A DNA stretch of 64,000 nt, from NCBI RefSeq assembly GCF_003334785.1, contig NZ_QOWV01000002.1. One strand, written 5' to 3'. The stretch comes from Escherichia coli (GTDB taxonomy: Bacteria > Pseudomonadota > Gammaproteobacteria > Enterobacterales > Enterobacteriaceae). The notes below the pieces were generated by a model. It was not told the origin of the DNA and searched no databases. It worked only from the letters and a program-made list of their open reading frames with translations. Position numbers and translations under genes: made by a program. Positions 1-32,633 of this stretch are shown in pieces. Numbering within the stretch: the first letter of the stretch is position 1; every line of letters starts with the position of its first letter.

Positions 1-2600
1 TCAACGTCGGTGCGAAGCTGGTCGTTCTCGGCGGCCCGGCAATGAACATCGGTCTTGGCGGTGGTGCAGCGTCTTCTATGGCGTCTGGTCAGTCTGATGC
101 CGACCTCGACTTTGCTTCCGTACAGCGCGACAACCCGGAGATGGAGCGTCGCTGCCAGGAAGTGATCGACCGTTGCTGGCAGCTTGGTGATGCCAACCCA
201 ATCCTGTTTATCCACGACGTTGGCGCTGGCGGTCTTTCTAACGCCATGCCGGAACTGGTGAGCGACGGCGGGCGCGGCGGTAAATTTGAACTGCGCGAGA
301 TTCTAAGCGACGAACCGGGCATGAGCCCGCTGGAAATCTGGTGTAACGAATCCCAGGAACGCTACGTGCTGGCGGTTGCTGCCGATCAATTACCGCTGTT
401 TGACGAACTGTGTAAGCGTGAGCGCGCACCCTACGCGGTGATTGGTGAAGCGACCGAAGAACTGCATCTTTCTCTGCACGATCGTCATTTTGATAATCAG
501 CCGATCGATCTGCCGCTGGACGTCCTGCTTGGTAAAACGCCGAAGATGACCCGCGATGTACAAACGCTGAAAGCGAAAGGCGACGCGCTGGCCCGTGAAG
601 GGATCACCATTGCAGACGCGGTGAAACGTGTGCTGCATCTGCCGACTGTGGCGGAAAAAACCTTCCTGGTGACCATTGGCGACCGCAGCGTAACCGGCAT
701 GGTAGCGCGCGATCAGATGGTGGGGCCGTGGCAGGTGCCGGTCGCTAACTGCGCGGTCACTACCGCCAGCCTCGACAGCTACTACGGTGAAGCGATGGCG
801 ATTGGCGAGCGTGCGCCGGTTGCGCTGCTGGATTTCGCCGCCTCTGCCCGTCTGGCGGTCGGTGAAGCGTTAACCAACATCGCCGCAACACAAATTGGCG
901 ATATCAAACGCATCAAACTTTCCGCCAACTGGATGGCGGCGGCAGGCCACCCTGGTGAAGATGCGGGCCTGTATGAAGCCGTTAAAGCCGTGGGCGAAGA
1001 GCTTTGTCCGGCGCTGGGCCTGACGATCCCGGTGGGTAAAGACTCCATGTCGATGAAAACCCGCTGGCAGGAAGGTAACGAAGAGCGCGAAATGACGTCG
1101 CCGCTGTCGCTGGTGATTTCTGCATTTGCCCGCGTGGAAGATGTACGTCACACCATCACGCCGCAGCTTTCTACCGAAGATAACGCACTGCTGCTGATTG
1201 ATTTGGGCAAAGGCAATAACGCGCTGGGCGCAACGGCGCTGGCGCAGGTTTATCGTCAGCTTGGCGACAAACCGGCAGATGTACGCGATGTCGCGCAACT
1301 GAAAGGCTTCTATGACGCGATTCAGGCGCTGGTTGCACAGCGTAAGCTGCTGGCGTATCACGACCGCTCTGATGGCGGCCTGCTGGTAACGCTGGCGGAA
1401 ATGGCCTTTGCTGGTCATTGTGGCATTGACGCGGATATCGCCACTCTGGGTGACGATCGCCTGGCGGCGTTGTTTAACGAAGAACTGGGTGCGGTGATTC
1501 AGGTTCGTGCCGCTGACCGTGAAGCGGTCGAGTCCGTACTGGCACTGCATGGGCTTGCTGATTGTGTCCATTATGTAGGGCAGGCGGTTTCCGGTGACCG
1601 TTTTGTGATTACCGCCAACGGGCAGACTGTATTCAGCGAAAGCCGCACCACGTTGCGTGTCTGGTGGGCAGAAACTACCTGGCAGATGCAGCGCCTGCGT
1701 GACAACCCGGAGTGTGCCGATCAGGAGCATCAGGCGAAATCTAACGACGCCGATCCGGGCCTGAATGTAAAACTGTCGTTCGATATCAACGAAGATGTGG
1801 CAGCACCGTATATTGCCACTGGCGCACGTCCGAAAGTTGCCGTACTGCGTGAGCAGGGCGTGAACTCGCATGTTGAAATGGCGGCAGCTTTCCACCGTGC
1901 AGGCTTTGATGCTATCGACGTGCATATGAGTGACCTGCTGACCGGACGCACGGGCCTGGAAGATTTCCACGCCCTGGTCGCGTGCGGTGGTTTCTCCTAC
2001 GGTGATGTGCTGGGTGCCGGTGAAGGTTGGGCGAAGTCAATCCTGTTCAATGACCGTGTACGCGATGAGTTTGCAACCTTCTTCCACCGTCCGCAAACGC
2101 TGGCGCTGGGGGTATGTAACGGTTGCCAGATGATGTCTAATCTGCGTGAACTGATCCCAGGTAGTGAGTTGTGGCCACGTTTTGTGCGCAATACCTCCGA
2201 TCGCTTTGAAGCGCGTTTCAGCCTGGTTGAAGTAACCCAAAGCCCGTCTCTGCTGTTGCAGGGGATGGTGGGCTCGCAAATGCCGATTGCTGTCTCTCAT
2301 GGTGAAGGGCGCGTGGAAGTGCGTGATGCGGCGCATCTGGCGGCACTGGAAAGCAAAGGGCTGGTGGCACTGCGCTATGTCGATAACTTCGGCAAAGTCA
2401 CTGAAACCTACCCGGCTAACCCGAACGGTTCACCGAACGGTATTACGGCAGTCACGACTGAAAGTGGTCGAGTCACCATTATGATGCCGCACCCGGAACG
2501 TGTTTTCCGTACTGTCAGCAACTCCTGGCATCCGGAAAACTGGGGCGAGGATGGCCCATGGATGCGCATTTTCCGCAATGCGCGTAAGCAGTTGGGGTAA
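1..2600 (+). CDS. purL: Phosphoribosylformylglycinamidine synthase, C-terminal ~852 aa (5' end lies upstream of the window)
   Basis: ORF 42..2600 translation recognised as the PurL glutamine amidotransferase/AIRS-like C-terminal region; reading frame stays open to the window edge. Confidence 0.95.
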
Positions 2601-2915: not shown

Positions 2916-3100
2916 AGTGGCTCATTCACCGACTTATGTCAGCCCCTTCGGGACGTGCTACATAAAATACGAATGACGCACAACAAGGTGCCTGCCGTCC
3001 AACTTCTGATATCAGCGTAGCTATATCAACCATCGGGCGAAACGTCGAGTTAGGCACCGCCTTATTCCATAACAAAGCCGGGTAATTCCCGGCTTTGTTG
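2916..3100 (+). ncRNA. glmY: GlmY small RNA (formerly tke1/sroF), regulator of glmS via GlmZ
   Basis: Location between purL and glrK; transcript predicted from sigma54 promoter to hairpin aaagccggg/cccggcttt (3075-3097) plus U-rich tail; about 185 nt, consistent with known GlmY; ends not mapped. Confidence 0.75.
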
Positions 3101-7230: not shown

Positions 7231-8421
7231 TTACAGCACCTTATGCGGGCCAAAGCATTCGTAATGAATGTTTTCCTGCTTCACGCCCAGATCCACTAAC
7301 TGTTTCGCGGTAAACTGCATGAAGCCAACCGGGCCGCAGAGATAGAACTGCATTGTCGGATCGCTGAACGCACCTTCCAGTTTGCTCAAATCCATCAGAC
7401 CTTCGCTATCAAACTGACCTTTAGCGCGATCGGCTTCGCTCGGCTGACGATACCAGGTGTGCGCGGTAAAGCGCGGCAGTGACTGCCCCAGTTCCTTAAC
7501 TTCATCGGCAAAGGCGTGAACATCGCCATTTTCTGCCGCATGGAACCAGTTCACTTGTGCTGTGTGGCCTGCTTTTGCCAGCGTGTCGAGCATTGCCAGC
7601 ATTGGCGTTTGACCAACACCGGCAGAGATTAACGTCACTGGTGTGTCATCTGCGACAGCCATAAAGAAATCACCTGCCGGAGCGACCAGTTTCACGACAT
7701 CGCCAACATTGGCGTGATTGTGCAACCAGTTGGATACCTGCCCACCCTCTTCGCGTTTCACCGCAATACGATAGCCTTTGCCATCCGGTTTGCGAGTCAA
7801 AGAGTACTGACGAATTTCCTGATGTGGGAAACCTTCCGGCTTCAGCCAGACGCCGAGATATTGCCCCGGACGGTATTCTGCCACTGCGCCACCGTCGACC
7901 GGCTCCAGTTCGAAGCTGGTGATAAGCGCGCTGCGCGGTGTTTTAGCCACAATGCGGAAATCGCGAGTACCTTCCCAACCACCGGCTTTGCTGGCGTTTT
8001 CGTTATAGATTTCCGCCTCGCGATTGATAAATACATTAGCCAGTACACCATAGGCTTTACCCCACGCGTCCAGCACTTCCTGCCCCGGGCTGAACATTTC
8101 GTCCAGCGTTGCCAACAGGTGTTCACCGACGATGTTGTACTGTTCCGGTTTGATCTGGAAGCTGGTGTGCTTCTGCGCGATTTTTTCTACCGCTGGCAGC
8201 AGCGCAGGCAGGTTTTCAATATTACTGGCGTAGGCGGCAATAGCGTTAAACAGGGCTTCACGTTGATCGCCATTACGCTGGTTACTCATGTTAAAAATTT
8301 CTTTGAGTTCTGGGTTATGAGTAAACATACGGTCGTAGAAATGGGCGGTTAACTTTGGCCCCGTTTCCACCAGTAAAGGGATGGTGGCTTTTACTGTAGC
8401 GATGGTTTGAGCGTCAAGCAT
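7231..8421 (-). CDS. hmp: Flavohemoglobin (nitric oxide dioxygenase)
   Basis: ORF 7231..8442 (-); globin N-terminus [17 protein letters not shown] reductase C-terminus; start trimmed to give 396 aa. Confidence 0.95.
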
Positions 8422-8438
8422 ATGGTCTTCCTTTTTTT

Positions 8439-8470
8439 GCATCTTAATTGATGTATCTCAAATGCATCTT
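8439..8470 (-). promoter_or_regulatory. NsrR-type operator (AAGATGCATTT-n-AAATRCATCTT-like inverted repeat) in the hmp promoter
   Basis: Inverted repeat gatgtatctcaaatgcatctt plus an adjacent aagatgc half-site, 20-50 bp upstream of the hmp start. Confidence 0.6.
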
Positions 8471-8748
8471 ATAAAAAATAGCCCTGCAATGTAAATGGTT
8501 CTTTGGTGTTTTTCAGAAAGAATGTGATGAAGTGAAAAATTTGCATCACAAACCTGAAAAGAAATCCGTTTCCGGTTGCAAGTTCTTTATTCTCCAAAGC
8601 CTTGCGTAGCCTGAAGGTAATCGTTTGCGTAAATTCCTTTGTCAAGACCTGTTATCGCACAATGATTCGGTTATACTGTTCGCCGTTGTCCAACAGGACC
8701 GCCTATAAAGGCCAAAAATTTTATTGTTAGCTGAGTCAGGAGATGCGG

Positions 8749-10002
8749 ATGTTAAAGCGTGAAATGAACATTGCCGATTATGATGCCGAACTGTGGCAGG
8801 CTATGGAGCAGGAAAAAGTACGTCAGGAAGAGCACATCGAACTGATCGCCTCCGAAAACTACACCAGCCCGCGCGTAATGCAGGCGCAGGGTTCTCAGCT
8901 GACCAACAAATATGCTGAAGGTTATCCGGGCAAACGCTACTACGGCGGTTGCGAGTATGTTGATATCGTTGAACAACTGGCGATCGATCGTGCGAAAGAA
9001 CTGTTCGGCGCTGACTACGCTAACGTCCAGCCGCACTCCGGCTCCCAGGCTAACTTTGCGGTCTACACCGCGCTGCTGGAACCAGGTGATACCGTTCTGG
9101 GTATGAACCTGGCGCATGGCGGTCACCTGACTCACGGTTCTCCGGTTAACTTCTCCGGTAAACTGTACAACATCGTTCCTTACGGTATCGATGCTACCGG
9201 TCATATCGACTACGCCGATCTGGAAAAACAAGCCAAAGAACACAAGCCGAAAATGATTATCGGTGGTTTCTCTGCATATTCCGGCGTGGTGGACTGGGCG
9301 AAAATGCGTGAAATCGCTGACAGCATCGGTGCTTACCTGTTCGTTGATATGGCGCACGTTGCGGGCCTGGTTGCTGCTGGCGTCTACCCGAACCCGGTTC
9401 CTCATGCTCACGTTGTTACTACCACCACTCACAAAACCCTGGCGGGTCCGCGCGGCGGCCTGATCCTGGCGAAAGGTGGTAGCGAAGAGCTGTACAAAAA
9501 ACTGAACTCTGCCGTTTTCCCTGGTGGTCAGGGCGGTCCGTTGATGCACGTAATCGCCGGTAAAGCGGTTGCTCTGAAAGAAGCGATGGAGCCTGAGTTC
9601 AAAACTTACCAGCAGCAGGTCGCTAAAAACGCTAAAGCGATGGTAGAAGTGTTCCTCGAGCGCGGCTACAAAGTGGTTTCCGGCGGCACTGATAACCACC
9701 TGTTCCTGGTTGATCTGGTTGATAAAAACCTGACCGGTAAAGAAGCAGACGCCGCTCTGGGCCGTGCTAACATCACCGTCAACAAAAACAGCGTACCGAA
9801 CGATCCGAAGAGCCCGTTTGTGACCTCCGGTATTCGTGTAGGTACTCCGGCGATTACCCGTCGCGGCTTTAAAGAAGCCGAAGCGAAAGAACTGGCTGGC
9901 TGGATGTGTGACGTGCTGGACAGCATCAATGATGAAGCCGTTATCGAGCGCATCAAAGGTAAAGTTCTCGACATCTGCGCACGTTACCCGGTTTACGCAT
10001 AA
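8749..10002 (+). CDS. glyA: Serine hydroxymethyltransferase
   Basis: ORF 8743..10002; PLP-lysine motif [14 protein letters not shown]; start at MLKREMN giving 417 aa. Confidence 0.97.
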
Positions 10003-10199: not shown

Positions 10200-11393
10200 T
10201 CAAATCTGTCGTAACTGCGCCTCAACATACAAATAGCCAATTCCCAGCACCTGTTGTGCGCGGCTTAATTGCCCAAAGCCAATTTGCGTCGCTTTCACGC
10301 TCGGTCCTTCGTCGCGGTCGAACGGGTTAAATCCTGTCTGGCGAATAATAGTATTAAGCCAGTTCTCACCAAAGGCACAACTGCGACCGTACAACCAAAT
10401 CTGATTAATATTGAGGATGTTGAGGAAGTTATACAGACTCAAACCAATGGCATTGGCAGAGCGATCAACCCAGCTGGTGATCCACGGTTCTCCACTTTGC
10501 CAGGCAGCGATTAACTGCGCTGTAGTCAGTTTTTCAGGATCAAGTTGAGTACTAACCGGTTGTGATTTTAGCCATACCCGCGCCTGTTTTTTTAATGCGC
10601 TTAACGAGGCGACGGTTTCCAGGCAGCCATAACGTCCACAGTCGCAGACGACGCCATCCGGATTAACGATGGTGTGACCAATCTGTCCGCTACCATACAA
10701 ACTGCCGCGATAAATTTGCTCGTTAATCACGAACGACGAGCCAATGCCGTAATCAACGTTGATCACGCAGAAATCCCGTTCCTGCGAATTATTTTGCCAT
10801 TTCTCCGCCAGCGCCAGCATCACGCAGTCATTATCGACCATCACCCGAATGCCGAGCTTCTCTTCCAGCAGATATTTCACCTCCACCGGCGTTGTCCACG
10901 GCGCTTGCGGCATGGTTTGCGACACGCCGGTCACAGGATCAACCTGACCGTGGATTGCCAACGCCAGGTTGATGGTATGGTCCGGCCACAATTTACGGTG
11001 GCGATGCCAGCATTTTTCGATTTCGGACAGCAGCGCCTGCGGCGTCGGTGCATCAATCTGTAAATACTCAAATTCACCTTTCGGACTTAAACAAGCATTA
11101 GCAACCTGACACTCAATACTGGTGGGCGTCACGTTCAGGCACAGCGTCCAGTCACCTTCCGGCGCAATCAGCCATGTACCGCTACTATGCCCGCGCGTCT
11201 GGCTTTCATCGTCAATATTCACCACCCGTTTTTCGCTTTCCAGTTCCTGCAAAATATTACTGACTGCCGGAATCGAAATTTGCGCCAGCCGGGCCAGCGT
11301 TGATTTATTGGCGCGCTTTTGCCGGTACAGCAGTTCCAGAATCACGCATTTGTTATGGTGGCGAATCTGTTGATTATTAATGCAGGCTCTCAT
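10200..11393 (-). CDS. yphH: ROK/NagC-family transcriptional regulator
   Basis: ORF 10200..11399 (-); N-terminal HTH, ROK sugar-kinase-like fold with CxCGxxGC zinc motif; divergent from yphG. Confidence 0.85.
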   Translation of the reverse strand: MRACINNQQIRHHNKCVILELLYRQKRANKSTLARLAQISIPAVSNILQELESEKRVVNIDDESQTRGHSSGTWLIAPEGDWTLCLNVTPTSIECQVANACLSPKGEFEYLQIDAPTPQALLSEIEKCWHRHRKLWPDHTINLALAIHGQVDPVTGVSQTMPQAPWTTPVEVKYLLEEKLGIRVMVDNDCVMLALAEKWQNNSQERDFCVINVDYGIGSSFVINEQIYRGSLYGSGQIGHTIVNPDGVVCDCGRYGCLETVASLSALKKQARVWLKSQPVSTQLDPEKLTTAQLIAAWQSGEPWITSWVDRSANAIGLSLYNFLNILNINQIWLYGRSCAFGENWLNTIIRQTGFNPFDRDEGPSVKATQIGFGQLSRAQQVLGIGYLYVEAQLRQI

Positions 11394-11510
11394 CTTCACT
11401 AAACCTTGTTTAGTTAATTGCGTGATTATTCCGCGAAAACATTGCCAGATTGTTCAATACACTGCCACAAATCTTTTAATTCAGTATGTCTTGTTAATAT
11501 TGAGGGCACC

Positions 11511-31674: not shown

Positions 31675-31857
<183 letters not shown>

Positions 31858-32522: not shown

Positions 32523-32633
32523 TAAAAAGAATTCAGAATCAGGCCGGAGTGCTAAATACTCCGTAAACACGGTCGTACATCCAGCCGGTAGCCTGATTCC
32601 TTGCATTGAGTGATGTACGGAGTTTATAGAGCA

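Follow-up and report, generated by a model that had tools for sequence, protein, structure and literature searches.

In enteric bacteria, NO is detoxified under aerobic conditions mainly by the enzyme Hmp, which is also a virulence factor. At the hmp promoter, a textbook example of converging control, one short region receives input from several sensors, namely NsrR, FNR, MetR and, weakly, Fur. The closest described counterpart of the element analysed here is the NsrR site upstream of hmp in Escherichia coli K-12 and CFT073 (Rodionov 2005; Bodenmiller & Spiro 2006; Partridge 2009; Mehta 2015). It was predicted by Rodionov 2005 as 'E. coli hmp -48 GATGCATTTgAgATaCATC' and is listed in Table 4 of Mehta 2015, a study of strain CFT073, as 'hmp, ChIP-seq +, TTGATGTATCTCAAATGCATCTT'. 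In Mehta 2015, the NsrR ChIP signal peaks 34 bp before the hmp start codon, and single 11-mer motifs are reported 44 and 19 bp upstream of it, the former being the top single 11-mer motif of the hmp peak and the latter, 'hmp (19) AAGATGCAAAA', receiving a low score. Enrichment at hmp in that ChIP-seq experiment was modest (3.8-fold). According to a paper citing Filenko 2007, hmp is derepressed in nsrR mutants, and data from Salmonella also bear on this point. For the Streptomyces NsrR, one NO per cluster (per dimer) is enough for release from an hmp operator.

Within the NsrR family of sites, the ytfE (dnrN) operator, AAGATGCATTTAAAATGCATCTT, serves as the near-perfect 11-1-11 reference. The hmp site shares with it the architecture and the promoter-proximal arm AAGATGCATTT, and differs by four mismatches, which all fall in the other arm, at its outer positions and next to the spacer; this arm, unlike its counterpart at ytfE, doubles as an FNR half-site, ATCAA. 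The corresponding PatSer scores are -18.2 for hmp and -25.1 for ytfE (Mehta 2015). In Salmonella, Klebsiella, Citrobacter, Enterobacter and other Enterobacteriaceae, the hmp operators lie at the homologous position beside an invariant TTTACA -35 hexamer, and the divergent glyA gene is kept. Most other Enterobacteriaceae operators match the NsrR consensus at 19-21 of 22 positions and lack a good FNR match, and the AAGATGCAAAA 11-mer is found only in Escherichia. For MetR, the reference is the divergent metE-metR region, where a pair of TGAA-N5-TTCA-like sites with a centre-to-centre distance of 22 bp responds to homocysteine.

Against this background, the locus described here is the same locus in another strain. 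Its NsrR site is identical to that of K-12 and CFT073 (TTGATGTATCTCAAATGCATCTT), stands at the same distance from the start codon and has the same neighbours, with no difference found. The palindrome highlighted by the first-pass annotation is thus an already published NsrR site, and everything that we checked matches knowledge from 1995-2015. The known picture of hmp is unchanged by our analysis; its value is that a call of NsrR made from the sequence alone proved accurate and that several details could be corrected, namely the full 23-bp extent of the site, the nested FNR site and the MetR sites common to both genes.

The NsrR operator at the hmp promoter

The window, that is, the whole 64-kb stretch of DNA analysed, contains hmpA (hmp) at 7231..8421 on the minus strand and glyA at 8749..10002 on the plus strand, as given in the list of open reading frames. 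The former encodes a NO-inducible flavohaemoglobin of 396 aa, matching the NCBIfam equivalog NF009805 'NO-inducible flavohemoprotein' with 629 bits (cut-off 432), and the latter a serine hydroxymethyltransferase of 417 aa, matching NF000586 'serine hydroxymethyltransferase' with 678 bits. The RefSeq annotation of a near-identical genome (1 base difference in 8327) has hmpA and glyA in the same places, flanked by glrR-glnB at one end and by yphH-yphG at the other. This is the divergent pair that the first-pass annotation had proposed. With the hmp ATG at 8419-8421 on the complementary strand and the glyA ATG at 8749-8751, the divergent intergenic control region between them (8422..8748) measures 327 bp, exactly as previously delimited, and its GC content of 38.5%, compared with 53% across the whole window, bears out its description as AT-rich.

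Both annotated starts are supported over alternative in-frame ATGs further upstream. The hmp start is preceded by a Shine-Dalgarno sequence read from the DNA, AAGGAAG (8427..8433, minus strand; 87% conserved), and the glyA start by AGGAG (8738-8742, plus strand), 6 nt before the ATG at 8749. Mechanical extension of the reading frames lengthens hmp by 7 codons, to an ATG at 8440-8442 (minus strand), and glyA by 2 codons, to an ATG at 8743-8745 (plus strand). No usable Shine-Dalgarno sequence precedes either of them, and the one upstream of hmp is not conserved outside Escherichia. We also rejected small ORFs of 25-58 aa within the spacer, which lack support and run across regulatory sites.

The full 11-1-11 element occupies 8448-8470 (TTGATGTATCTCAAATGCATCTT) and reads AAGATGCATTT-G-AGATACATCAA on the minus strand, in the hmp sense. 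The first-pass annotation had recognised the 11-1-11 design and had placed the repeat within 50 bp of the hmp start, which is correct; the string it quoted is a 21-mer (8450-8470, at a distance of 29-49 nt from the hmp ATG) and is short of the 23-bp element by the two outermost bases of its left arm. Two motif comparisons set this stretch apart. The consensus gATGyAT-N5-ATrCATc has an exact match at 8450-8468, the sole one in 64 kb and with none in 100 shuffles. In addition, when compared with the ytfE-type palindrome AAGATGCATTT-N-AAATGCATCTT, 8448-8470 agrees at 18 of 22 positions, whereas the next best place in the window reaches 14 of 22. The arms are unequal. The promoter-proximal, hmp-upstream half-site AAGATGCATTT (8460..8470, minus strand) is perfect (11/11) and overlaps the -10 hexamer, while the downstream half-site AGATACATCAA (8448..8458, minus strand) matches the consensus at 7/11 and covers +1 to +11.

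A comparison with known NsrR sites, suggested beforehand as a check, gave a letter-for-letter match. The 19-mer of Rodionov 2005 is the reverse complement of 8450-8468, and the ChIP-seq-positive sequence of Mehta 2015 is identical to 8448-8470. When transferred to the window, the ChIP summit falls at approximately 8455, inside the element, and the single 11-mers at 44 and 19 bp correspond to 8460-8470 and 8435-8445. The latter is a weak, second NsrR-like 11-mer in the hmp leader (8435..8445, minus strand). It repeats the strong half-site in the same orientation at an interval of 25 bp, the shared unit TGCATCTTA occurring at 8438-8446 and 8463-8471. This second 11-mer is 47% conserved and confined to Escherichia.

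The promoter itself is well defined. The experimentally mapped hmp start shown in Fig. S3 of Rodionov 2005, the marked A in TTTG-A-GATACA, can be placed by sequence at 8458 (minus strand), which gives a 37-nt leader. A promoter scan returned TTTACA-18-TAAGAT (9/12 matches), in agreement with this start, with the -35 hexamer TTTACA at 8490..8495 and the -10 hexamer TAAGAT at 8466..8471 (both minus strand), the latter spanning -13 to -8. The -35 hexamer is also invariant in the seven-species alignment of Rodionov 2005. Relative to the mapped start, the NsrR element accordingly runs from -12 to +11 and lies over the -10 hexamer, so that the overlap with the hmp core promoter proposed earlier is confirmed.

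To place these features in an evolutionary frame, a protein-guided scan with one genome per species collected 80 Enterobacteriaceae hmp loci (Hmp identity 81-99%). In 78 of these, the upstream neighbour of hmp is glyA, in divergent orientation; for the other two, only about 20 bp of upstream sequence was available. Spacer lengths range from 272 to 346 bp. We aligned 79 distinct spacers and expressed conservation as column identity to the E. coli base. An NsrR-type site matching at 17-21 of 22 positions is present at the homologous position in all 79, with the E. coli site (18) near the bottom of this range; most other genera match better in the downstream arm, which ends in ATACATCAT or ATGCATCAT. 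Identity is 75% over the whole spacer (8422-8748), and rises to 100% in the -35 hexamer (8490-8495, invariant in 79/79 spacers), 99% in the -10 hexamer (8466-8471) and 96% in the upstream NsrR arm (8460-8470), compared with 76% in the downstream arm (8448-8458). Intervening stretches fall to 45% (8496-8531) and 51% (8569-8589). Within the species, every one of the 5426 complete E. coli genomes searched carries the spacer as a single chromosomal copy at an identity of at least 95%, and 5333 of them do so at 99% or more; the 71 bp around the hmp promoter reach at least 99% identity in 5095 E. coli genomes.

Taken together, 8448-8470 is almost certainly the operator at which NsrR, a NO-sensing repressor of the Rrf2 family, acts on the sigma-70 promoter of hmp, as the first-pass annotation had called it. 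The sequence, its position, the statistical match, the conservation and the identity to published sites come from our analysis, while in vivo occupancy by NsrR, the loss of repression in nsrR mutants and the reaction with NO are taken from the literature. The E. coli hmp site is at the same time among the weaker ones in its family (18/22, with a downstream arm of 7/11).

The resulting model follows published NsrR chemistry. A holo-NsrR dimer carrying [4Fe-4S] would bind the imperfect 11-1-11 repeat at 8448-8470 and, lying over the -10 hexamer, the start and the first 11 transcribed bases, would block binding or opening by RNA polymerase. Steric occlusion is suggested as the mode of repression because the site covers -12 to +11. 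NO would nitrosylate the cluster and bring NsrR off the DNA, allowing hmp to be transcribed, and repression would be restored once Hmp has cleared the NO. In the accessible literature, we found no study in which the hmp site itself, as opposed to the ytfE site, was mutated, and no direct test of the mode of repression at hmp.

Competing readings of the element

The best-surviving alternative is that the element is mainly an FNR operator, TTGAG-N4-ATCAA with its centre at about +4.5, and that the NsrR-like symmetry is secondary. FNR would then repress hmp anaerobically and would itself be inactivated by NO. The FNR-type site TTGAG-atac-ATCAA (TTGAGatacATCAA; TTGATGTATCTCAA) lies at 8448..8461 on the minus strand, nested in the NsrR operator from -3 to +11, and matches TTGAT-N4-ATCAA at 9/10 positions. 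The first-pass inventory of regulators, right about NsrR, had missed this site. A candidate FNR site is marked at hmp in Fig. S3 of Rodionov 2005, and papers citing Cruz-Ramos 2002 credit that study with repression of hmp by FNR, its relief by NO, which FNR senses, and FNR binding in vitro. Myers 2013 likewise reported a predicted FNR site at hmp together with FNR-dependent expression.

Several observations weigh against giving FNR the leading part. The match is weak by itself, because six FNR-type matches with one mismatch occur in the window where 2.4 are expected. A match of at least 9/10 is kept in only 11 of 79 spacers, whereas the NsrR site is present in 79 of 79; the lineage restriction of the FNR site noted by Rodionov 2005 is the same as that seen here. 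In vivo, a ChIP-seq peak at hmp was obtained for NsrR (Mehta 2015) and none for FNR (Myers 2013), where hmp was accordingly classed as a 'silent' site. We therefore regard a primarily FNR-directed operator as possible but rather doubtful. Alongside NsrR as the main partner of the element, the nested FNR-type site may add a second, anaerobic input to the repression of hmp.

The coexistence of the two sites can also be read as a trade-off. In Escherichia, an ancestral NsrR operator might have been partly 'spent' on the overlapping FNR site, with NsrR and FNR competing for the same 23 bp; the AAGATGCAAAA 11-mer at 8435-8445, 25 bp downstream, may then be a compensating NsrR-like element. If true, this trade-off would explain why the downstream arm has degraded to one ending in ATCAA (7/11) when operators of most other genera stand at 19-21/22, and occupancy by competing NsrR would explain why the hmp site is silent in FNR ChIP-seq. 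Its ingredients are known separately, the lineage-restricted FNR site from Rodionov 2005 and the silent site from Myers 2013; in the literature, we found no test of a trade-off or competition between NsrR and FNR at hmp. We consider this scenario speculative and rather unlikely.

A further alternative is that AT-rich promoter DNA produced the palindrome by chance and that no particular protein recognises it. As far as symmetry goes, this has substance. Considered as an inverted repeat, 8448-8470 is weak, with 7 of 11 arm positions self-complementary. Palindromy alone is not beyond chance, since about 1% of the window's 23-mers pair at least this well, including 6 positions within the spacer. 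A repeat search of the spacer reported no inverted repeat, because the arms have no exact 6-mer in common. Against chance stand the exact consensus match, for which none is expected, the ChIP-seq peak on an identical sequence (Mehta 2015) and the conservation of the site in all 79 spacers next to flanks that fall to 45-51%. These refute the chance reading, to which we assign a negligible probability: the NsrR element stands out by motif match and conservation, not by palindromy.

A third proposal, that the repeat forms an RNA hairpin in the hmp leader acting on translation or stability instead of transcription, has nothing in its favour apart from the symmetry of the DNA and is excluded because the mapped start at 8458 sits in the middle of the repeat, leaving one arm only to be transcribed; the 64-nt hmp leader, moreover, folds at -3.4 kcal/mol, weaker than its shuffles (z = +1.0), and a search of the spacer against Rfam gave no family at the gathering threshold and, at a relaxed one, only a meaningless mir-67 match (E = 0.34).

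Candidate MetR, PurR and glyA promoter elements

The first-pass annotation had also anticipated elements for glyA further upstream in the spacer, and candidates for these are present, comprising MetR sites, a PurR box, which had not been named, and a glyA promoter region. Two stretches are candidate MetR sites, as judged from motif, spacing and conservation. Site A, proximal to hmp (8532..8546; gTGAA-aaatt-TgCAT, gTGAAaaattTgCAT), has one mismatch to TGAA-N5-TTCA (motif ATGAA-N5-TTCAT); its centre lies 81 bp before the hmp start. Site B, proximal to glyA (8554..8568; cTGAA-aagaa-aTCCg, cTGAAaagaaaTCCg), is more degenerate and lies 22 bp from A, centre to centre. Identity in the 79 spacers is 86% for A and 94% for B. 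The motif itself is not above chance, TGAA-N5-TTCA-like matches numbering 33 in the window against 26 expected. The pair reproduces the spacing of the metE-metR sites, but at hmp-glyA neither flanking gene is metR. The distance from the candidates to the hmp start is about 80-100 bp; that to the glyA promoter depends on which glyA start is taken and exceeds 100 bp.

Papers that cite Lorenz & Stauffer 1995 and Membrillo-Hernandez 1998 credit them with describing two MetR sites between hmp and glyA. The reported effects of MetR reach both genes: activation of glyA with homocysteine and modulation of hmp when homocysteine is nitrosated. From two tandem sites about 80-100 bp upstream of the hmp start, MetR could thus tune both promoters. 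The earlier characterisation of the spacer as one shared by two unrelated regulons is misleading, because the MetR sites are reported to act on both genes.

Closer to glyA, 8615-8630 probably represents the glyA PurR box, an assignment made by motif and conservation. The box, AGGTAATCGTTTGCGT (reverse complement ACGCAAACGATTACCT), matches ACGCAAACGTTTGCGT at 13/16 positions and is the sole match in the window at up to 3 mismatches, although 0.66 such matches would be expected by chance. It is 93% identical across the 79 spacers, in which its core AATCGTTTGCGTAA is nearly invariant. According to PMC3548332, a glyA PurR site is 'confirmed' in RegulonDB by footprinting, site mutation and ChIP-chip. 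A separate, moderately conserved block, TTCTCCAAAGCCTTGCG (8590-8606; 76% conserved, with a higher value in its core CAAAGCCTTG), is located between the MetR candidates and the PurR box.

The glyA core promoter region (8639..8677, plus strand) offers more than one candidate. The promoter scan picks TTGTCA (8639-8644), followed after 16 bp by AATGAT (8661-8666). TTGTCA is 98% conserved, and AATGAT 71%, compared with 99% for TATACT (8672-8677), which is 27 bp from TTGTCA. The glyA start would accordingly lie near 8673 or near 8684, and there may be two glyA promoters. In the proposed arrangement, the PurR box and the glyA promoter would be situated nearer glyA than the other elements of the spacer. 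The last 24 bp before the glyA ATG (8725-8748) are 98% identical across the 79 spacers.

RNA folding of the hmp and glyA leaders was no better than that of shuffled sequences. The glyA leader contains, at 8688-8712 (plus strand), two tandem 4-bp hairpins, GUCC-aaca-GGAC and GCCU-auaa-AGGC. RNAfold predicted two hairpins in 55 of 77 Enterobacteriaceae spacers, with a few genera lacking them, and some of the changes are compensatory (GCCC/GGGC, CGCC/GGCG and CCCU/AGGG). Because of indels, RNAalifold did not yield a supported consensus for this pair of small hairpins in the glyA leader.

Observations elsewhere in the window

Outside the hmp-glyA spacer, a 10/11 NsrR half-site, AAGATGCAGTT, occurs at 460-470 (minus strand) near an FNR-like site with one mismatch at 376-389 (plus strand). 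This combination is probably due to chance.

Rfam matches at the gathering threshold elsewhere in the window are GlmY sRNA (2916-3063, plus strand), naRNA4 (31735-31806, plus), the iscRS stability element (32523-32632, plus), ryfA (40007-40310, minus), IS128 RNA (40442-40650, minus) and sroE (53479-53570, plus). All six are known E. coli RNAs.

The ROK-family gene yphH is an intact ORF in the window (10200-11399, minus strand). In strain FORC 064, which is otherwise near-identical, a C-to-A change at 10490 introduces an internal stop into yphH, and the gene is annotated there as a pseudogene.
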